64,000 nucleotides of DNA from the IMG/VR virus record IMGVR_UViG_3300031760_000015, positions 43,641 through 107,640 of that record; one strand, 5' to 3'. Below, in pieces: positions 8,540 to 52,010 of the stretch (positions are counted from its first letter, which is position 1; each line of letters begins with the position of its first letter). The notes beneath the pieces are model-generated. The model was not told the DNA's origin. It did not search any database and saw only the letters and a program-made list of their open reading frames with translations. The stretch is from a virus (taxonomy: Duplodnaviria; Heunggongvirae; Uroviricota; Caudoviricetes). A program made the translations under genes and the position numbers.

Positions 8540-10645
8540 ATGCCTCAAATAGATAATATTGCTAATGAGCCTTGGACTTCATCAATAGTTTTAGACGGAA
8601 GTAATAGTAAAACTATTCTTTATAATACAGCAAATAAATATATGGATAGAGACTTTAAAGTAGAAGTTACTGCAAATGAAGGTTCTGTTAGTCCATATTT
8701 TGATAATACTAATATTAGTACTTATTTTAATAGCGGTTCAGCTGGCTCAAATTCAATTAGTATTACTCCTAAAGCGACTTCTACTGCTGGTTTTGTTGGA
8801 GCATATGATACGAGTAATGCTCTTACTGGAACCGCAGTTTATTATACAATAAAATCTGGTACTTCTAAAGCAGGTAGTGCTGATGTTAATATAGATACTA
8901 CTGATGGAAGTGCTAATGGTGTTAATATTTCTGCTATTGTTGGAACAAAAGTAACTTCTGAACCAACTAGTGGATATTATTTAGCATTTAAAGGTGAAGG
9001 TAATTCTAAAGTTAATGCAGCTGGCTGGTTTGCTGCAGATACTTCTTTAACTAAAACTACAAGCGGGACTAAATATTTCCCTATTACTGCTGCGGCAATT
9101 ACAGCTTCTTCAAGTGATGCCACAGCTACAACTACTGTGGCCCCTGGAACGGTTACTATTGCAAAAGATACTTCAACAGTTTCAGGTAAAACTCGTTTAG
9201 ACTATACTCCAAGTACTGCAACTTCTGGTATTGGAACTTATTATATTGCAGTTAAAGCTAATGCTGCGGCAAATACTACTGGTACAACATCTTCAATTAG
9301 TGGTACAACTACTGCAAGTGTAAGTACCGCAGGTTATGCTCCAACTACACTATCAGGCTCTGGTAGTGTTAGTGGCACTGCTACAGCAAAAACTTCTTCA
9401 AAAGATAGTTCAGTTTATTATATTCCAGTGCCTTCTGCTGTTGCTACAATTACTGGTACAAATACTGTTACTCCATCAGCTTCATTAAGCCAATCTAATG
9501 TTACATTTAGTGATACTAATAATGGTATTTCAGTAACTGCAACTGGCGGTGGTACTGCTTCAGTTACAGCAAAAACAAATGCTACTACAGCTGGTTATAT
9601 TCCTGCCGGTGATAGCTTTAGTACAACTCTTTCTGCTTCTAGTAATACTACAACTGCTACTAAATATATTACAGGTATTACAGTACCAAAAGATAAAGGA
9701 TTTACTGTAACTACAACGGCGGATACAACATTAGATACTACTTCAGATTTAGATGTTACTAATGCTGCTTATCGTAGAGTTGATATTACTAATGCAGCAA
9801 ATGGTAGTGTTATAGTAAGCAATGCTGGTAATATTACTGCTACACAAAGTGCTAAAACTGGTGATATTGTTATTAATGCTTATGATACATCAAGTTCTAG
9901 TAGTTTAGCCGGTGAAAAGGCTATTGTTCAAAGTGGAACTTGGAAAACAACTGCTGCTTCCGGTGCAAGTACTTATTATGGTCGTGTAACAGTTGGCGCA
10001 GTAAGTGGAAGTATTGGTGGTTCTGCTTCAGGTGGTTCAGCAACTGCTACTATTACAAATACCAATAGTATTACAACTATTTCAGATATATCAGGAAAAA
10101 CAGCGGGTACTGATTATTGGCAGATTAAAGCTACTGCAACTGGTTCTGCTGGCTCTTATACTCCTAAATATACAGTCAATACCGCTGGTTGGATAGGTTC
10201 TACGGTTACTGGAACCGCACAAACTGTTTCTGTTTCCAGTGATAGTACGGGTAAATCATTATATATTCCAAAAGCTACGTTTAGTGTTTCTGGTAATAAA
10301 GTTTATTGTTCTGCGGCAGGCTATATCCCAGCTGGTAGTGCAAGTAGTCCTATTGGAACTGTTTCAACAGGTTCTATTTCTGCTGTTGCTAGCGATCCTG
10401 GAACTGGATATACTGAAAATACTTCTACTGTTATTGCTTCTGGTGGGTGGTTAAAATTAACTGCTGGTTATTATGGAGCAACTAAAATTAGTCTTGCTAC
10501 ATTAGTTCCTAATGCTGCTAATATCAGTAATGTTAGTGGTTATTCTGATGCAATGCTTGCTGGAACTACTGCTTATGATATTGATGGCGCTTTAATAACT
10601 GGTAATATTGCAACTTATGATGGTAGTTATACTGTTGTAACTTAA
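8540..10645 (+). CDS. tail fibre-like protein
   Basis: S/T/G-rich; C-terminal AYDIDGALITGNIATYDGSYT matches upstream gene; RBS GGTGAG. Confidence 0.55.
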   Translation: MPQIDNIANEPWTSSIVLDGSNSKTILYNTANKYMDRDFKVEVTANEGSVSPYFDNTNISTYFNSGSAGSNSISITPKATSTAGFVGAYDTSNALTGTAVYYTIKSGTSKAGSADVNIDTTDGSANGVNISAIVGTKVTSEPTSGYYLAFKGEGNSKVNAAGWFAADTSLTKTTSGTKYFPITAAAITASSSDATATTTVAPGTVTIAKDTSTVSGKTRLDYTPSTATSGIGTYYIAVKANAAANTTGTTSSISGTTTASVSTAGYAPTTLSGSGSVSGTATAKTSSKDSSVYYIPVPSAVATITGTNTVTPSASLSQSNVTFSDTNNGISVTATGGGTASVTAKTNATTAGYIPAGDSFSTTLSASSNTTTATKYITGITVPKDKGFTVTTTADTTLDTTSDLDVTNAAYRRVDITNAANGSVIVSNAGNITATQSAKTGDIVINAYDTSSSSSLAGEKAIVQSGTWKTTAASGASTYYGRVTVGAVSGSIGGSASGGSATATITNTNSITTISDISGKTAGTDYWQIKATATGSAGSYTPKYTVNTAGWIGSTVTGTAQTVSVSSDSTGKSLYIPKATFSVSGNKVYCSAAGYIPAGSASSPIGTVSTGSISAVASDPGTGYTENTSTVIASGGWLKLTAGYYGATKISLATLVPNAANISNVSGYSDAMLAGTTAYDIDGALITGNIATYDGSYTVVT

Positions 10646-25526: not shown

Positions 25527-25928
25527 ATGGGAAAATTAGTTGATTTAGCAATCAAACTTCGCCCATATATTGAAAAAGCTGCTGCAAATTTAAATGATAC
25601 AGATGCACTTGAAGCAATTCAATTATTTCCTAAATGGGAGCCTAATATTAAATATGAGAAAGACGATAGAGTAAGATATGAAAGTATTTTATATCGTTGC
25701 TTACAACCACATAATTCTCAAGAATCTTGGACTCCACTCGCGGCCGCAAGCCTATGGGCTAAAGTTTTAATTCCAGATGAAAATGTTATTCCAGATTGGG
25801 AACAACCTGATAGCACAAATCCATACCAAATTGGAGATAAAGTAAGATTTGAAAATAAAATTTATGAATCTGTTATAGCAAATAATATTTGGGCTCCAAA
25901 TGTTTATGGGTGGAAAGAGGTACTATAA
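25527..25928 (+). CDS. carbohydrate-binding protein with two CBM5/12-like domains
   Basis: YEKDDRVRYESILYRCLQPHNSQESWTPLAAASLWAKV matches CBM5/12 chitin-binding signature (Y..GD.V.Y.G..Y.C.Q.HTS..W.P...ALW). Confidence 0.55.
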   Translation: MGKLVDLAIKLRPYIEKAAANLNDTDALEAIQLFPKWEPNIKYEKDDRVRYESILYRCLQPHNSQESWTPLAAASLWAKVLIPDENVIPDWEQPDSTNPYQIGDKVRFENKIYESVIANNIWAPNVYGWKEVL

Positions 25929-26626
25929 TGAATAATTATAAAGTTTATTGTCATACATCACCAAACGGAAAGCGGTATGTTGGAATTAGTAATAATCCAG
26001 AAAAAAGATGGAATAATGGCAAAGGATATATTAAAAATTATTTATTTTATCGAGCAATAGAAAAATATGGTTGGAATAATTTTAATCACGAAATTTTATA
26101 TGATAATTTGTCTATAGAAGAAGCCGGAGCGATTGAACAAGAATTAATCCAAAAATGGAATTTAATGAACCCAAATTTTGGATATAATTTACGAGAAGGA
26201 GGAAATGGTAAATTTTCTGATTATTCTCGTTATTTGATGTCTAAAAATCGTAAAGGTAATACTAATTCCGTGGGCCAATATCATTCATTAGAAAATCGTA
26301 AACAAATTTCTGAATCATTAAAAAAATATTATAAAGAGCATCCTGTTCAAAAATTAGATATGACTGATAATAAAGAATATCAAAAAATTATAGCAAAACG
26401 AAAAGAACTTACTCATCAGAAACTTTCATTAGCTACTAGTGGTGCAAATAATCCTAGTGCTCGTCCTATAAGACAGCTAGATAAAGAAGGTAATTTAATA
26501 GAAGAATTTGCATATGCCACTTTAGCTGCGAAAAAATATAATATTGATTTATCTAGTATTATTAAATATTGTAGAGGTAAACAAAAAACTTGTGGTGGAT
26601 ATAAATGGGAATATGTTAATATTTGA
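25928..26626 (+). CDS. GIY-YIG homing endonuclease with NUMOD-like DNA-binding C-terminus
   Basis: YKVYCHTSPNGKRYVGIS...YRAIEKYG...NLREGG; C-terminal ...RGKQKTCGGYKWEY; start set to ATG 25928 (RBS GAGG). Confidence 0.7.
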   Translation: MNNYKVYCHTSPNGKRYVGISNNPEKRWNNGKGYIKNYLFYRAIEKYGWNNFNHEILYDNLSIEEAGAIEQELIQKWNLMNPNFGYNLREGGNGKFSDYSRYLMSKNRKGNTNSVGQYHSLENRKQISESLKKYYKEHPVQKLDMTDNKEYQKIIAKRKELTHQKLSLATSGANNPSARPIRQLDKEGNLIEEFAYATLAAKKYNIDLSSIIKYCRGKQKTCGGYKWEYVNI

Positions 26627-26716: not shown

Positions 26717-27070
26717 ATGAAATTTTATTCAGATGTAACAAAGCAATTTTATGACACTGAGAAGGCTTGTTTAGAAGCTGAGTTTAAGGTAAAGGAAAAG
26801 CAAAATCGAGAAAAGATTTTACGTGAAAAGGCTGAACGCGAAGCTAAGGAAAAGCAAGAAGCTCTTGCTGCTGAACGTAAGACTCGCGCGCAGGAAGTAG
26901 AGGATGCTCGTAAAGCTATGGTAACAGCACAACATAAGTATAGTGAATTACTTGAGGTTTTCTGTAAAGATTATGGAACTTTTCATCAAACTCTAACTGG
27001 TGAAGATGCCAAGGGTATTATTCCTACTCTATTTGATATTTTCAATCCTTTATTCTTTGACTTTAAGTAA
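26717..27070 (+). CDS. coiled-coil K/E-rich hypothetical protein
   Basis: ORF track, RBS AAGGAGAGG. Confidence 0.5.
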   Translation: MKFYSDVTKQFYDTEKACLEAEFKVKEKQNREKILREKAEREAKEKQEALAAERKTRAQEVEDARKAMVTAQHKYSELLEVFCKDYGTFHQTLTGEDAKGIIPTLFDIFNPLFFDFK

Positions 27071-27121
27071 AAAATCTGGTATAATATTTATGTAAGGTTG
27101 AGGGAATACCTCACCTTATAG

Positions 27122-27198: not shown

Positions 27199-27376
27199 TA
27201 GACCTGTAACAGCAATATAAAATTGGACTGTAAATCCCGAAAGATTGTGGGTTCGACTCCCACTCAGCCCCACCATTTATATGGGGCTGTGGCGCAACGG
27301 TTGACGCACGTGAAAAATTGGGTCTAGCATGTGCTGTAACGGGGAGAGGAGCACATTAATATCCCCTTTCCACCAT
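27199..27376 (+). ncRNA. E1: YACAGCAAU-motif element containing a circularly permuted tRNA-like core (T-arm + 3' acceptor CAGCCCC-A-CCA, 7-nt spacer, 5' acceptor GGGGCTG + D-arm) followed by two long hairpins
   Basis: motif TGTAACAGCAAT 27206-27216; T-arm 27247-27263; acceptor halves 27265-27271 and 27283-27289 perfectly complementary; CTGTAAC repeated at 27204 and 27344. Confidence 0.5.
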
Positions 27377-28004: not shown

Positions 28005-28114
28005 TAAGACAGTTACAGCAAATTCAATTAGATTATTAGTATAGTGGATAATACATTAAACTTCCAATTTAAAAATCGTCAGTTCGACTCTGACATAATC
28101 GAAAAAACTGTCTT
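28005..28114 (+). ncRNA. E2: long-range 9-bp stem (AAGACAGTT/AACTGTCTT) + ACAGCAAATT motif enclosing an intact tRNA-Gly(TCC)
   Basis: stem strands 28005-28013 and 28106-28114; motif 28014-28023. Confidence 0.55.
28030..28102 (+). tRNA. tRNA-Gly(TCC)
   Basis: D-arm GTAT..ATAC, anticodon arm TTAAA-CTTCCAA-TTTAA, T-arm GTCAGTTCGACTCTGAC; 1-72 A/G mismatch. Confidence 0.55.
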
Positions 28115-28529: not shown

Positions 28530-28536
28530 CTTATAG

Positions 28537-28655
28537 AGTCGCTCACAGCAATTGTTCTTATAGAACATATGGGTTCAAATCCCATAATACGCACAGCGTA
28601 TTTAGCCAAATGGTCAAGGCAGATGTCTAACAAACATCCTTCTATTAAAGCGACT
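28537..28655 (+). ncRNA. E3: stem-framed (AGTCGCT/AGCGACT) CACAGCAAT element enclosing a circularly permuted tRNA (T-arm + 3' acceptor AATACGC-ACA-GCGTATT 5' acceptor + D-arm + anticodon arm with loop CTAACAA)
   Basis: T-arm ATGGGTTCAAATCCCAT 28568-28584; acceptor halves 28585-28591 and 28595-28601 perfectly complementary; no T-arm follows the 5' half. Confidence 0.55.
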
Positions 28656-28668
28656 TGTTATATTTTAT

Positions 28669-28700
28669 AAGAGTTTGATTTTAATCAAACTCTTTTTTAT
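28669..28700 (+). terminator. rho-independent terminator closing the first tRNA island
   Basis: 12-bp stem AAGAGTTTGATT/AATCAAACTCTT then TTTTTT. Confidence 0.65.
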
Positions 28701-30559: not shown

Positions 30560-30634
30560 GCGCCGGTAGGCTAACGGATAGACCATGGGGCTACGGACTC
30601 CAGAGTGAGGGTTCGATTCCTTCTCGGCGCGCCA
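30560..30634 (+). tRNA. tRNA-Arg(ACG)
   Basis: acceptor GCGCCGG/TCGGCGC, anticodon loop CTACGGA, T-arm GAGGGTTCGATTCCTTC, CCA. Confidence 0.7.
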
Positions 30635-30730: not shown

Positions 30731-30803
30731 GGACCGGTAGCCCAATGGCAGAGGCACTAGCCTAAGGAGCTAGCAAGTGTGGGTTCAAATCCCACCCGGT
30801 CTA
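30731..30803 (+). tRNA. tRNA with anticodon AAG (Leu by anticodon) but class I (5-nt variable loop), A73
   Basis: anticodon arm CTAGC-CTAAGGA-GCTAG; T-arm GTGGGTTCAAATCCCAC. Confidence 0.55.
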
Positions 30804-30811
30804 CTAAAATT

Positions 30812-34442: not shown

Positions 34443-34853
34443 ATGGATACAAATATTAAAGGTATTATTACCGAATTAAAATGTAAAACTTATTTTTTAG
34501 AATTGGGATATACTGTCTCAACTCCAGAAAATCCAACGAGGTATGATTTTATTTTAGACACTGGAAATAAACTTATAAAAATTCAGGTTAAAACTTGTAC
34601 TTCAGATGGAGAAAAATTAAGTTTTGCTACTTGTTCTAGTCATTTTGTAAATGGAAAAGTTACTCATACTCATTATCAAAATGATAATATTGATTATTTT
34701 TGTACTTGGTATAATAATGAATGTTATCTAATTCCTGTATCAGAGTGTGGGAAAACTGAAAAAAAATTACGATTAGTTCCCACACGAAATGGACAAGTAA
34801 AAAAAATTAGTTTTGCTAAGGATTATATTGCTAAGGAGGTTTTAAATAGATAA
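34443..34853 (+). CDS. PD-(D/E)XK-like homing endonuclease within the tRNA-Met intervening sequence
   Basis: YDFILD ... KIQVKT motifs; paralog of 50608 gene; located between the tRNA halves. Confidence 0.45.
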   Translation: MDTNIKGIITELKCKTYFLELGYTVSTPENPTRYDFILDTGNKLIKIQVKTCTSDGEKLSFATCSSHFVNGKVTHTHYQNDNIDYFCTWYNNECYLIPVSECGKTEKKLRLVPTRNGQVKKISFAKDYIAKEVLNR

Positions 34854-46623: not shown

Positions 46624-46688
46624 ATATGTAAGAACGACGATTACAGCAATTAATAAGTAAACATAGCTATTGGAGTTATTTCTACTGT
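46624..46688 (+). ncRNA. E4a: stem (ACGACG/CGTCGT) + ATTACAGCAATT motif hairpin element, no tRNA inside
   Basis: motif 46632-46643 directly 3' of the stem 5' strand. Confidence 0.45.
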
Positions 46689-46702
46689 TCGTCGTGCTGA
46701 TT

Positions 46703-46777
46703 GAAATTAAAGGCGGATACAGCAATTTTATATTTTAAGTAATAATCTGTTAAATTATCGCACTTAATAATAACCGC
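46703..46777 (+). ncRNA. E4b: stem (AGGCGG/CCGCCT) + ATACAGCAATT motif hairpin element
   Basis: motif 46709-46719. Confidence 0.45.
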
Positions 46778-46786
46778 CTAGAAATT

Positions 46787-47384: not shown

Positions 47385-47954
47385 GTGATTATTATGAAAA
47401 AATGGGAAAGGTTTTCTGATGAAGAGTTGCAAGAAATTGCTTATAGAAGTTCTTGCTTAGGAGACTACGCTAAAAATTTAGGCTATTCTATAAAAGGTAC
47501 TAGTGGTAATAGTGCTCGTTCTTCTGTAAAAGCAATGATTGAACTTAAACAAATAAATGTAATGCATTTTAAAGGTTATAAAGATAAATCTACACAATTT
47601 AATTATAAACATGTTAATGAAAATTATAATGTTAGTAATTTATTTATAGAAAATAGCTTCGCAGAAAGAAAACTTATTAGACGTTATTTATTAGCATATA
47701 ATTTAATTCCATATAAATGTGCTTTTTGTGGTAATGAAGGGGAATGGCGAGGAAAGCAGATTAGTTTAGAATTAGACCATATTAATGGCAAGCATAATGA
47801 TAATAGATTAGAAAATCTTCGTTGGCTTTGTCCAAATTGTCACGCTACTACTCCTACATACTGCGGTAAAAATATAACTTATCAATGTGAACAAGCCCTG
47901 TTAGCTCAGTCGGTAGAGCATTCGGCTGGTCAGATAGAAACAAGTCCTAGTTGA
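47385..47954 (+). CDS. HNH homing endonuclease
   Basis: CAFCG ... DHINGKHNDNRLENLRWLCPNCH; 3' end overlaps tRNA-Thr exon 1. Confidence 0.7.
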   Translation: MIIMKKWERFSDEELQEIAYRSSCLGDYAKNLGYSIKGTSGNSARSSVKAMIELKQINVMHFKGYKDKSTQFNYKHVNENYNVSNLFIENSFAERKLIRRYLLAYNLIPYKCAFCGNEGEWRGKQISLELDHINGKHNDNRLENLRWLCPNCHATTPTYCGKNITYQCEQALLAQSVEHSAGQIETSPS

Positions 47955-48020
47955 GTGCAAGACTCAAATCTGGCACCATTAACCGAAGTGTCGGCAGTTC
48001 AAGTCTGTCACAGGGCGCCA
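47895..48020 (+). tRNA. tRNA-Thr(GGT) interrupted by a 50-nt insert in the anticodon loop (insert 47931-47980, between nt 36 and 37)
   Basis: acceptor GCCCTGT/ACAGGGC, D-arm GCTCAGTCGGTAGAGC, anticodon stem TTCGG/CCGAA, T-arm GGCAGTTCAAGTCTGTC, CCA; insert folds into CAGAT/ATCTG and TTGAGT/ACTCAA helices. Confidence 0.55.
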
Positions 48021-48726: not shown

Positions 48727-48850
48727 TTAGACTCAGCCAGCATATTTTTTACTTACGCATTGAGGAGCGAGTAGCATTGGTTCGAATCCAATTCTTCCCA
48801 CTATATGGGAAGATAGTGTAATGGTAGCACGCTTAATAGTATGAGTCTAG
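48727..48850 (+). ncRNA. E7: stem-framed (TAGACTCA/TGAGTCTA) element with degenerate motif (GCCAGCATAT) enclosing a circularly permuted tRNA-like core (T-arm + 3' acceptor TCTTCCC ... 5' acceptor GGGAAGA + D-arm)
   Basis: T-arm ATTGGTTCGAATCCAAT; acceptor halves perfectly complementary; D-arm GTGTAATGGTAGCAC. Confidence 0.45.
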
Positions 48851-49221: not shown

Positions 49222-49313
49222 TAAGCCTTTACAGCAATTTTTAAATGGTTAAATTATTTTGTTTAAAGTACAGAGTAAGAGAAGGTTCGAGCCCTTCATA
49301 ATTAAAAGGCTTA
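49222..49313 (+). ncRNA. E5: 9-bp stem (TAAGCCTTT/AAAGGCTTA) + ACAGCAATTT motif element containing a T-arm-like hairpin (GAAGGTTCGAGCCCTTC)
   Basis: motif 49231-49240; T-arm-like 49281-49297. Confidence 0.45.
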
Positions 49314-49866: not shown

Positions 49867-49986
49867 TATGCGGTCACAGCAATTTTAGATATTAATCTAA
49901 GTGTCATCGGTTCGATTCCGATTATTCCAGCCATTTAATTTGGAGTGTAGCTCAATTGGTAGAGCATTAGACTTTATAACCGCATA
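49867..49986 (+). ncRNA. E6: 8-bp stem (TATGCGGT/ACCGCATA) + CACAGCAATT motif enclosing a circularly permuted tRNA (3' anticodon-stem strand TCTAA, variable loop, T-arm, 3' acceptor TATTCCA-G-CCA, spacer, 5' acceptor TGGAGTG, D-arm, 5' anticodon-stem strand TTAGA)
   Basis: T-arm ATCGGTTCGATTCCGAT 49906-49922; encoded CCA 49931-49933; D-arm GCTCAATTGGTAGAGC 49950-49965; no T-arm downstream of the 5' half. Confidence 0.6.
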
Positions 49987-50075: not shown

Positions 50076-50176
50076 AAGTCCGTTACAGCAATTTTATATA
50101 AAAATTTAGAATTAATTTAATATGTTGGTTTATTAAAAATTTTGAAAATTTATTGATACGGACTTGATTTTTTTAT
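50076..50176 (+). ncRNA. E8: 8-bp stem (AAGTCCGT/ACGGACTT) + TACAGCAATT motif element with AT-rich loop, followed by a T-run (terminator-like)
   Basis: motif 50084-50093; T-run 50168-50176. Confidence 0.45.
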
Positions 50177-50607: not shown

Positions 50608-51225
50608 ATGGTAGAAACAAAGATTAAAGGGCTTACGACAGAATTATTATGTCAGGCATATCTTACTTCTTTAGGATATAATATTTCTATTCCTATTGGC
50701 GAAGATTGTAGATATGATATGATTCTGGATTTAAATGGAAAACTTTTGCGTATACAAGTTAAAACTTGTCAAGAAGAAGAAAATAGAATATCTTTTCGTA
50801 CTTGTAGTATTACAACATCCGGAAAAGAAAATATTATTCATAAATATACTAAAGACCAAATTGATTTAATAGCTACTTATTATAATGACCAATGTTATTT
50901 AATTCCAATTGAAGAATGTGAAGGAATGAAAGGTAGAAGTTTAGTTTTTTCACCAGAAAAAACAAATGCTATTAAACCTTTATATATTAAAGATTATACA
51001 GCAGAAATCATTTTAAATAAAATCCTTAATAATGAACAAATTAAAAAGGAGGATGATTTTATTGTGTATCAATATGATTTAAATAATAACTTACTTAATC
51101 AATTTTCTTCATACGCAGAAGCAGGAACTTCCATTAACAAACCTTCTAGTCATATAAGTCAATGTGCTAGAGGATTAAGAAAAACCGCATATGGTTTTAT
51201 TTGGTCATTAACATTAAAGGATTAA
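50608..51225 (+). CDS. PD-(D/E)XK-like homing endonuclease with NUMOD-like C-terminus, inside the tRNA-Ser intervening sequence
   Basis: YDMILD ... RIQVKT; C-terminal ...CARGLRKTAYGFIWS; paralog of 34443 gene. Confidence 0.45.
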   Translation: MVETKIKGLTTELLCQAYLTSLGYNISIPIGEDCRYDMILDLNGKLLRIQVKTCQEEENRISFRTCSITTSGKENIIHKYTKDQIDLIATYYNDQCYLIPIEECEGMKGRSLVFSPEKTNAIKPLYIKDYTAEIILNKILNNEQIKKEDDFIVYQYDLNNNLLNQFSSYAEAGTSINKPSSHISQCARGLRKTAYGFIWSLTLKD

Positions 51226-51930: not shown

Positions 51931-52010
51931 TTTAGACATTCACAGCAATAATAAGCAATGCCATTATTTAAATTTAAATCAAAAGATTATTGCAACTTTT
52001 GTAGTGTCTA
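51931..52010 (+). ncRNA. E9: stem (TAGACA/TGTCTA) + TTCACAGCAATAAT motif element with AT-rich loop
   Basis: motif 51939-51952. Confidence 0.45.

Follow-up and report, generated by a model that had tools for sequence, protein, structure and literature searches.

A permuted-order tRNA cloverleaf in a phage tRNA island is probably a Y RNA that partners a Ro60-fold protein

The transfer RNA (tRNA) island of an uncultivated phage (Caudoviricetes; IMG/VR record IMGVR_UViG_3300031760_000015, positions 43,641 to 107,640, a stretch of 64,000 nucleotides (nt) analyzed in full and hereafter called the window) contains an element, E3 (+ strand, 28537-28655), that carries every arm of a tRNA in permuted order. 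The T arm and the 3' acceptor strand come first, followed by the 5' acceptor strand, the D arm, and the anticodon arm, and an initial annotation had read the element as a permuted tRNA. This raises the question of whether E3 is a gene for a tRNA that decodes or an RNA of another kind that has the shape of one. We found that the term permuted tRNA is right for its topology, a permuted cloverleaf, and probably wrong for its gene type. E3 is unlikely to be a decoding permuted tRNA because it belongs to a family of cassettes most of which have no tRNA-like cargo, because these cassettes track a gene for a Ro60-fold protein, because its architecture is that of the bacterial Y RNA YrlA, because its termini lack the bulge-helix-bulge (BHB) motif, and because its anticodon drifts. 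It is probably a phage-encoded Y RNA of the YrlA (tRNA-mimic) class and a partner of that Ro60-fold protein.

All structural elements that had been listed for E3 are present within 28536-28656 (Table 1). The unconstrained fold of 28531-28662 consists of the six helices of the permuted cloverleaf (-36 kcal/mol, z = -4.5), at a stability matched by none of 200 shuffles. Sequence and native fold agreed on an acceptor stem that pairs at 7/7 positions and is closed by an ACA triloop, and the fold, together with the covariation described below, upheld the proposed permutation point in the variable region, after the complete anticodon arm. Because that arm is complete, the terminal helix leaves from the variable region and does not replace the anticodon stem. 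The possibility that AATACGC-ACA-GCGTATT is an unrelated stable hairpin was not borne out, the native fold being a cloverleaf with tRNA tertiary signatures. The Rfam tRNA model scored native E3 at 21 bits (gathering score 29), aligning only the 5' half, which begins at 28596 and comprises the acceptor 5' strand, D arm, and anticodon arm (the D-arm part with high posterior probability); loss of the T arm and 3' acceptor strand from this alignment is expected from the permuted order. ARAGORN called no tRNA in native-order E3, although 26-27 ordinary + strand tRNAs were found in the window by ARAGORN and Rfam, and reported tRNA-Val(AAC) once the two halves were swapped in silico. Apart from the partial tRNA match, an Rfam search of the E3 region at E <= 10 returned no known family; minus-strand matches such as 'Plastid-ycf2' were rejected as mirrored tRNA arms. 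None of the phage's own tRNAs stood out as a parent of E3, their similarity to it being generic and only ~60%.

A shuffled window would be expected to contain 0.9 instances of the bare layout, with a T arm, 3' acceptor strand, short linker, and matching 5' acceptor strand (>= 6/7 pairs), and it is conservation and covariation in 16 homologs that exclude chance. A megablast of 27-31 kb against cultured phages gave no match, and relatives of the uncultivated phage were therefore reached through neighboring proteins. The comparison with related phages that had been proposed for E3 produced an identical copy in locus L002 and diverged orthologs in L003, L007/L018, and L009, while E3 was missing from the relative L001. 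In L007 the E3 unit sits between two tRNAs and not ahead of a terminator, and conservation between the window and L007 begins and ends at the closing helix. A covariance model of E3 (R1), built from 12 members, gave 17 full-length matches of 88-128 bits in ~1.5 Mb of related phage DNA, and the 16 distinct top-tier sequences were used for all covariation statistics. A MAFFT alignment displaced some helices and was replaced by structural parsing and covariance-model alignment. Standard pairs filled 94.8% of pair cells compared with 72.4% in shuffled alignments (0 of 500 shuffles reached the observed value), an absolute level inflated by an alignment that was model-fitted and by members picked for forming helices. 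Compensatory changes and controls are free of this inflation, and the numbers that inform are therefore how often both sides of a pair changed and what the shuffle and slid-register controls gave. Both sides changed in 21 of 33 pairs, the covariation score was 0.614 (0.201 in shuffles), and sliding one partner by 1-3 columns brought pairing down to 35-46%.

All six helices contributed. With percentages inflated as above, the outer six pairs of the terminal helix were 100% paired (three covary), the V helix was 82% paired (three pairs changing on both sides), the T stem 100% (two covarying pairs), the acceptor stem 97% of cells (six of seven pairs changing on both sides), the D stem 100% (one covarying pair), and the anticodon stem 100% (four of five pairs covary). 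Among the 12 homologs parsed by hand, a hairpin occupied the V position in all 12, and slid-register controls of the acceptor stem gave 31-46% pairing. The motif (A/G)CAGCAA was invariant. The tertiary signatures of tRNA were likewise retained: U8 and A14 are invariant, G18 G19 are present, the T loop is canonical, and the Levitt 15:48 pair is A15:U48 in 10 of the 12 hand-parsed members, G15:C48 in L009, and A:A in L043. E3 RNA is thus real, structured, and tRNA-shaped, a conserved RNA predicted to be transcribed together with the tRNA array. The covariation effectively refutes a decaying remnant, that is, a tRNA pseudogene or a functionless recombination scar of two halves, which we regard as scarcely credible. 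The window copy lacks CCA and acceptor mismatches (A.C and U.U) occur in some orthologs, but compensatory changes affect every helix across phages whose Ro-like proteins are only ~50% identical, and the terminal motif does not vary.

The anticodon loop reads CU-NNN-AA in 15 of the 16 homologs, with a variable triplet: GAU in seven, AAC in three, AAU and UAA in two each, and GUU and AGA in one each. Most are single-step neighbors of GAU on conserved bodies without matching identity changes. The AAC anticodon of E3, which had drawn attention for its unusual A34, is present, but it looks like drift from a GAU-type ancestor and not like an adaptation for decoding. Because anticodons vary (AAC, AAU, GAU, GUU, AGA, and UAA) while bodies are conserved, A34 can be read as drift without invoking inosine. 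Such instability fits relaxed or diversifying selection better than stable decoding. A34 also occurs in ordinary high-scoring tRNAs of the window (30731-30804 and 30560-30634, Leu-AAG and Arg-ACG) and, as Thr-AGT, in the relatives L001, L002, and L007, which suggests a host or phage with expanded A34/I34 use.

The ends of E3 are shared well beyond E3 itself. The sequence ACAGCAAT recurs on the + strand across the tRNA island, each time after a 6-9 nt strand complementary to sequence 40-120 nt downstream, and the window holds at least 10 credible cassettes with a terminal helix and an adjacent ACAGCAA block (Table 1). A relaxed scan for CAGCA[AT] plus a stem of at least 6 base pairs (bp) was too noisy (~7 per strand in shuffles, 19 on the minus strand), and window cassettes were counted only if intergenic and matching the full consensus. 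In a family survey of 80 IMG/VR loci encoding the Ro60-fold protein, 171 cassettes lay on the strand of that gene compared with 15 on the opposite strand and 18 in shuffled sequence, and 60 of the 80 loci had at least one. The 158 unique cassettes share an end consensus in fixed register, 5'-(U)AGRCNCAU-ACAGCAA-N-UUUU ... GNGUCU(A)G-3', and the closing strand of E3 fits its (U)AGRCNC part. Their cargo differs widely: 33 carry a permuted T arm, closed acceptor, and D arm, 11 are tRNA-like in normal order, 13 have a T arm only, and 101 hold nothing tRNA-like. That cargo so varied shares one terminal module suggests a common handle and not a maturation signal specific to tRNA. Of the 26 linkers of at least 4 nt in permuted cassettes, 10 have N-CCA immediately after the 3' acceptor strand (binomial P = 1e-13), including those of the L003 and L018 orthologs of E3 and of the window cassettes at 27199 (A-CCA) and 49867 (G-CCA). 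This enrichment is an argument that enzymes of tRNA end processing open the acceptor loop in many members of the family.

Several cassettes in the window illustrate this range. Those at 27199-27326, 48728-48849, and 49867-49986 are permuted and have no anticodon arm, in the style of YrlA, and two of them encode N-CCA; within the last, 49898-49972 matched Rfam YrlA at 30.6 bits (E = 3.4e-5). The cassette at 48728-48849 is probably the element annotated as E6, whose break had been placed inside the anticodon loop; it is better read as a terminal helix that replaces the anticodon stem. The module also flanks a genuine tRNA-Gly(UCC) at 28006-28114, and the Ro-type handle is therefore attached to real tRNA precursors too. 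Cargo of the tRNA-less cassettes (46634-46695, 46711-46779, 50076-50165, and 51933-52010) consists of short AT-rich hairpins, analogous to YrlB-type Y RNAs. At 49235-49305, inside the cassette at 49222-49313, ARAGORN called a 'tRNA-Phe(aaa)' that reached only 20.9 bits with the Rfam tRNA model; it probably belongs to the tRNA-like cargo of the cassette and is not an A34 tRNA that decodes. Normal-order cassette RNAs from L065 (7017-7119), L070 (7001-7102), and L076 (6425-6526) are near-identical and differ in the anticodon alone (AAA, AUA, and GAA), an instability of the kind seen in the E3 lineage. Locus L013 of a related phage (8173-8246 / 8726-8841) encodes a tRNA with a CUA anticodon (amber suppressor; labeled 'Pyl' by ARAGORN) and also a cassette with a normal-order tRNA-like RNA, whose anticodon loop has 8 nt (UUGU). 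A self-cleaving ribozyme or group I intron was considered for the conserved motif; neither had Rfam support, and the size is wrong for a group I intron.

The proposed partner of these RNAs is a protein of 542 amino acids encoded on the same strand, 9.8 kb from E3 in the window and 1.2-9.6 kb from its homologs elsewhere. It matched phrog_850 ('RNA-binding protein') at E = 6e-122, and a PDB sequence search with the open reading frame (ORF) gave no match; its relationship to Ro60 is seen only through the fold and through mycobacteriophage annotations. An AlphaFold model (predicted local distance difference test, pLDDT, 82.5; predicted template modeling score, pTM, 0.80) was compared with the PDB by Foldseek. 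The top 11 matches were all full-length Ro60/TROVE structures, with E down to 6.6e-10 and a template modeling (TM) score of ~0.54 over ~570 columns, whereas lower matches were isolated vWA domains only. The Ro60/TROVE matches were Xenopus and human Ro60 and the Ro60 of Thermus phage phiLo (9KOP, 9L5Y). Homologs in mycobacteriophages (35-37% identity across 93% of the length) bear the annotation 'Ro-like RNA binding protein'. Homologs occur in 697 cultured-phage records (tblastn), and the DUF2828 protein family has > 6,700 metagenome homologs, mostly annotated hypothetical. Literature searches on permuted tRNAs in phages and on DUF2828 turned up nothing relevant.

In seven divergent lineages of phages (those of Bacillus, Listeria, Mycobacterium, Escherichia, Staphylococcus, and Campylobacter and the uncultivated group of the window), cassettes share both region and strand with the Ro-like gene. 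The ACAGCAA motif was present in all six cultured phages examined, and cassettes abut the Ro-like gene in five of them. Bacillus phage vB_BsuS_PJN02 (Ro-like protein 41% identical) has six cassettes in the 2.6 kb upstream, one ending 88 nt before the gene; two contain permuted tRNA-like modules, and one is a weak full-length YrlA match (20.1 bits). Three tandem cassettes occur within 350 nt upstream of the gene in Listeria phage LMSP-25 (38.6%) and three directly downstream of it in Mycobacteriophage UPIE (37.2%). The middle UPIE cassette has the motif AGCAGCAAU, a T arm, the acceptor stem CGCCACC-CUA-GGUGGUG, and a D arm, and was recognized both by Rfam YrlA (39.8 bits, E = 1.6e-5, full length) and by the E3 model (42 bits). 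Staphylococcus phage S-CoN_Ph6 (31.8%), which has no tRNA island, carries three tandem cassettes starting 20 nt after the gene. Campylobacter phage F355 (29.0%), also without a tRNA island and with one tRNA nearby, has two that end 22 nt before it. In the Escherichia coli Felixounavirus warpig (33.9%), two cassettes lie 340-630 nt downstream, one of them permuted and tRNA-like (46 bits by the E3 model). RNA ligases of RtcB and Rnl type were consistently encoded a few kb downstream of the Ro-like gene, as in LMSP-25 (L095; 14847-16058 and 17619-18560) and in the window (41746-42396), an arrangement that mirrors the bacterial rsr-yrlA-rtcB operon. In LMSP-25 the genes downstream are an RtcB-type ligase, a second RNA ligase, and a phosphoesterase.

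The cassette ends might instead serve without any Ro protein, either as a clamp that processes or stabilizes small-RNA transcripts in tRNA operons or as inverted repeats at the ends of a small mobile element through which tRNA-like cargo spreads. They are inverted repeats of conserved sequence (TAGAC...GTCTA), comparison of the window with L007 shows the unit moving between contexts as a module, it is missing from L001, and homing endonucleases are abundant in the island. However, the strand bias of 171 to 15 indicates an RNA-level function of the cassettes, as do the matches to the E3 model, all 116 of which, at any score, lie on the + strand. The helices also covary, and in phages of Listeria, Mycobacterium, Staphylococcus, and Campylobacter the Ro-like gene has tandem cassette arrays directly beside it. 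A helix of 7-9 bp is too short for a classical RNase III site, and no target-site duplications were noticed at the cassettes. We therefore give Ro-independent ends a distinctly low probability.

A Y RNA of the YrlA class would account for the ends and the cloverleaf together. YrlA (RF02553) has paired ends with GNCGAAN0-1G near the 5' end as the likely contact of the Ro60 protein Rsr, and its middle is a tRNA mimic composed of a V stem-loop, T arm, acceptor-like stem-loop, and D arm, with 15:48 covariation (Chen et al. 2014, PMC4201824). Its genes lie <= 4 kb from the TROVE gene on the same strand, including in 22 phages (PMC4201824). In Mycobacterium smegmatis the acceptor stem of the RNA has 7 bp; RNase P cleaves this RNA both in vitro and in vivo, CCA is added, and the two pieces stay bound to Rsr (PMC4201824). 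Like those of YrlA, the ends of E3 form a stem, whose 5' side bears a conserved motif that is single-stranded or bulged; a V stem-loop, T arm, loop-closed acceptor stem, UA, and D arm follow, with the tertiary signatures of tRNA, including a covarying 15:48 pair. A 7-bp acceptor in some members, several Y RNAs per genome, a Ro60-family gene on the same strand, and occurrence in phages are further points in common. Unlike that of YrlA, the partner of E3 belongs to Pfam DUF2828 and not to the TROVE family, albeit with a Ro60 fold, and at least 10 cassettes per genome are spread through the tRNA island up to at least 10 kb from the gene. A phage precedent is Thermus phage phiLo, in which a Ro60-fold protein is encoded next to small RNAs (Yrl1/Yrl2) whose 5'-3' stem flanks a motif-bearing internal loop, and the Ro60/Yrl ribonucleoprotein binds the host polynucleotide phosphorylase, PNPase (PMC12135203). 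Unlike E3, the RNAs of phiLo have CGAA, and the text searched does not describe them as resembling tRNA (PMC12135203).

Several points weigh against assigning E3 to this class. The motif GNCGAAN0-1G is absent from E3, from every cassette of the window, and from all 158 surveyed cassettes (0/158), which have the invariant (A/G)CAGCAA at the equivalent place; RF02553 (gathering score 69 bits) gave E3 no match at E <= 10, and sibling cassettes reached only 20-40 bits. E3 would thus work like YrlA but departs from the curated family in two formal features. Descriptions of YrlA include no full anticodon arm with a canonical CU-NNN-AA loop, and its presence in E3 hints at a function closer to that of tRNA. 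The acceptor loop of E3 in the window is ACA only, which makes RNase P and CCA processing of this copy uncertain. The 9.8 kb separating it from the Ro-like gene exceeds the 4 kb used by Chen et al. All links between RNA and protein are comparative, and in most loci the cassettes, tRNAs, and Ro-like gene share one island, so that their association is partly confounded; the Staphylococcus, Campylobacter, and Mycobacterium phage loci break this confound.

The order of the two halves also recalls genuinely permuted tRNA genes. Soma et al. in 2007 and Chan et al. in 2011 are said to have described circularly permuted tRNA genes in Cyanidioschyzon merolae and Thermofilum. The termini of these algal and archaeal precursors form a BHB; the splicing endonuclease cuts it, ligation yields a circle, and a normal tRNA results. 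No such splicing endonuclease is known in bacteria. Applied to E3, such a route would cut the termini, circularize the RNA, perhaps through the Rnl2-like ligase, and open the acceptor loop by RNase P and 3' processing to leave a contiguous, decoding tRNA-Val(AAC). As in those genes, the 3' half precedes the 5' half, a short linker joins the ends of the 7/7 acceptor stem, the termini pair, and all tRNA arms are present. The RNA ligase gene at 41746-42396, the CCA encoded by the L003 and L018 orthologs, and the fact that no other tRNA-Val was found in the window would also suit this route. However, neither the fold nor the homolog alignment contained a BHB at the E3 termini, which form a continuous 8-bp helix with single strands of 9 and 10 nt on one side only. 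Ligation would leave ~60 nt (closing helix, ACAGCAA, and V hairpin) in the variable region. The termini bear a conserved protein-type motif and belong to a module that is found both on non-tRNA RNAs (101/158) and on ordinary tRNAs needing no rearrangement, and that follows the Ro60-like gene even where tRNAs are lacking. Together with an anticodon that is unstable among close homologs, this leaves a true permuted tRNA gene very improbable.

Two-piece transfer-messenger RNA (tmRNA) of alpha-proteobacteria and cyanobacteria has a similar gene order, with the T arm and a CCA-bearing 3' acceptor ahead of the 5' acceptor strand, and matures to two base-paired pieces. E3 shares this order but, unlike tmRNA, has neither a tag reading frame nor pseudoknots. 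ARAGORN found no tmRNA, the Rfam tmRNA model reached only 9 bits, on the T arm of E3, and the cyano_tmRNA model only 13.8 bits, on a sibling cassette.

E3 could also decode without rearrangement, as a split tRNA whose acceptor loop is opened by RNase P and CCA addition, whose halves are held by the acceptor and closing helices, and which is aminoacylated, the closing helix and V hairpin forming an oversized variable arm. After an in silico cut at G28596, the two-piece cofold keeps the same fold and is stable (-37.2 kcal/mol); the anticodon loop is canonical in all but one homolog, and N-CCA is enriched among permuted cassettes. Against this, CCA is encoded in just 2 of the 16 E3-type RNAs (A-CCA-AAUC in the acceptor loops of the L003 and L018 orthologs), the others having closing loops of 2-5 nt. 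Acceptor mismatches are tolerated, single-step anticodon changes (GAU, AAU, AAC, and GUU) come without identity changes in the body, and the insertion at the variable region is a bulky, multi-helix one. Chen et al. considered it unlikely that aminoacylation is a general property of YrlA RNAs (PMC4201824). We consider a split decoding tRNA unlikely.

If E3 is a Y RNA of the YrlA class, the Ro60-like ring may bind the terminal helix and ACAGCAA, by analogy with Ro60 on the 5' strand of the Y RNA stem, while the tRNA-like body would be displayed to host or phage factors that recognize tRNA, such as modification enzymes, RNase P, and the enzyme that adds CCA, and possibly also PNPase, RNA ligases, and anticodon nucleases. 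RNase P cuts M. smegmatis YrlA, and if it also cuts E3, at G28596, the permuted order would leave both halves on the handle that binds Ro, kept there by the acceptor and closing helices. The same processing would free the tRNA of a normal-order cassette, for example 28006-28114, from its handle. Permuting a tRNA could thus be useful, in that the body remains tethered once its ends are processed. The tRNA mimic might then recruit or distract tRNA-binding factors while the Ro-like ring holds the handle, a speculative scheme modeled on Rsr/YrlA/RtcB and on the phiLo Ro60/Yrl/PNPase system. The role of E3 would most likely be that of a scaffold or decoy in tRNA-centered RNA repair or anti-defense, beside the phage RNA ligase.

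A more specific version is possible but doubtful. E3-type RNAs may be tRNAs permuted so that end-processing (RNase P, 3' trimming, and CCA addition) opens the acceptor without detaching the body from the Ro60 handle. The product would be a two-piece, CCA-tailed, possibly aminoacylated tRNA on the Ro60-like ring, serving as a decoy or sensor for anticodon nucleases or as a platform for tRNA repair by the RNA ligase, and the ACAGCAA handle would define an undescribed class of Y RNA. If so, the rapidly changing anticodon would track the specificity of host anticodon nucleases, and the ACAGCAA class would be present in hundreds of cultured phages, including Felixounavirus and P100-like Listeria phages.

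Y RNAs with tRNA-like domains and phage homologs of Ro60 were already known, their function in phages being largely open. New here are a subclass with a full cloverleaf, another handle motif, and a Ro-like partner of the DUF2828 type. These data suggest that a widespread phage protein family gains a recognizable RNA partner signature, the terminal helix plus ACAGCAA, with partner RNAs that include complete tRNA cloverleaves in permuted order. This family-level signature is a more valuable by-product than E3 itself and is directly testable in model phages. It offers a practical annotation for many unexplained gaps in phage tRNA islands and explains spurious or odd tRNA calls there. The Bacillus subtilis phage, P100-like Listeria phages, and Felixounavirus phages of E. 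coli are tractable models for the role of a Ro60/tRNA-mimic particle in tRNA repair or in countering tRNA-cleaving defenses.

Table 1. Positions of E3, its parts, the other cassettes, and associated features in the window
Feature	Position	Strand	Description
E3 cassette	28537-28655	+	permuted full cloverleaf
E3 closing (terminal) helix, 5' strand	28536-28543	+	G-AGTCGCT; partner 28649-28656; 8 bp including G28536-U28656
E3 single-stranded motif	28544-28552	+	C-ACAGCAA-U, CACAGCAAT; unpaired in minimum-free-energy fold; proposed Ro60-like docking site
E3 V hairpin	28553-28567	+	TGTTC-TTATA-GAACA; tRNA variable-arm position, equal to 'V' stem-loop of YrlA
E3 U48 and T arm	28568-28585 (arm 28569-28585)	+	ATGGG-TTCAAAT-CCCAT; canonical T loop
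E3 acceptor stem, loop-closed	28586-28602	+	7/7 pairs
E3 3' acceptor strand	28586-28592	+	AATACGC
E3 acceptor-closing loop	28593-28595	+	A73-C-A (ACA)
E3 5' acceptor strand	28596-28602	+	GCGTATT
E3 U8 A9, D arm, A26	28603-28621	+	D arm GCC-AAATGGTCAA-GGC at 28605-28620
E3 anticodon arm, complete	28622-28638	+	GATGT-CTAACAA-ACATC; AAC at 28629-28631
E3 tail and closing-helix 3' strand	28639-28656 (strand AGCGACT 28649-28655)	+	CTTCTATTAA, single-stranded, then AGCGACT-T
Sigma-70-like promoter	27057-27085		TTGACT-17-TATAAT; opens the transcription unit at whose end E3 lies
Intrinsic terminator of tRNA/cassette unit	about 28669-28700	+	11-bp stem, then T run; 13 nt past closing helix
Cassette	27199-27326	+	TAGACC...GGTCTA; permuted T arm, acceptor stem, D arm; A-CCA follows acceptor strand; R1 32.8 bits
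Cassette	28006-28114	+	9-bp closing helix, AAGACAGTT-ACAGCAA ... AACTGTCTT; encloses genuine normal-order tRNA-Gly(UCC) 28029-28103, 62.2 bits
Cassette	46634-46695	+	without tRNA feature
Cassette	46711-46779	+	without tRNA feature
Cassette	48728-48849	+	TAGACTCA...TGAGTCTA; variant motif CAGCAUA; permuted tRNA-like module; R1 40.4 bits
Cassette	49222-49313	+	poor normal-order tRNA-like sequence
Cassette	49867-49986	+	TATGCGGT...ACCGCATA; permuted tRNA-like module; G-CCA encoded; R1 41.1 bits
Cassette	50076-50165	+	without tRNA feature
Cassette	51933-52010	+	without tRNA feature
PTH2 peptidyl-tRNA hydrolase gene	37605-38108		near Ro-like gene
Ro60-fold protein gene, proposed partner	38483-40111	+	542 amino acids; Pfam DUF2828, DUF7788, VWA_2
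Rnl2-like RNA ligase gene	41746-42396		near Ro-like gene

The tRNA island has further features of its own. Five homing-endonuclease-like ORFs on the + strand (25889-26626, 34443-34853, 43971-44612, 47385-47954, and 50608-51225) show GIY-YIG, PD-(D/E)XK, HNH, and NUMOD motifs, and their scatter is consistent with the order of tRNAs and cassettes having been shuffled between related phages. The HNH endonuclease ORF at 47385-47954 is overlapped at its 3' end by a tRNA (47895-48017, +; Rfam 51.8 bits) that ARAGORN missed and that has a ~52-nt insertion in the anticodon loop, too short for a group I intron. A drum RNA (43192-43303, +; Rfam RF02958, 70.8 bits) also lies inside the island; it is a real match and was rejected as a relative of E3, being structurally unrelated. 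The tRNA island of LMSP-25 (L095 7980-8078 and 10467-11018) contains a drum copy (50.2 bits) and a ROOL-like RNA that, at 88.5 bits, falls below the gathering score of 99.1.

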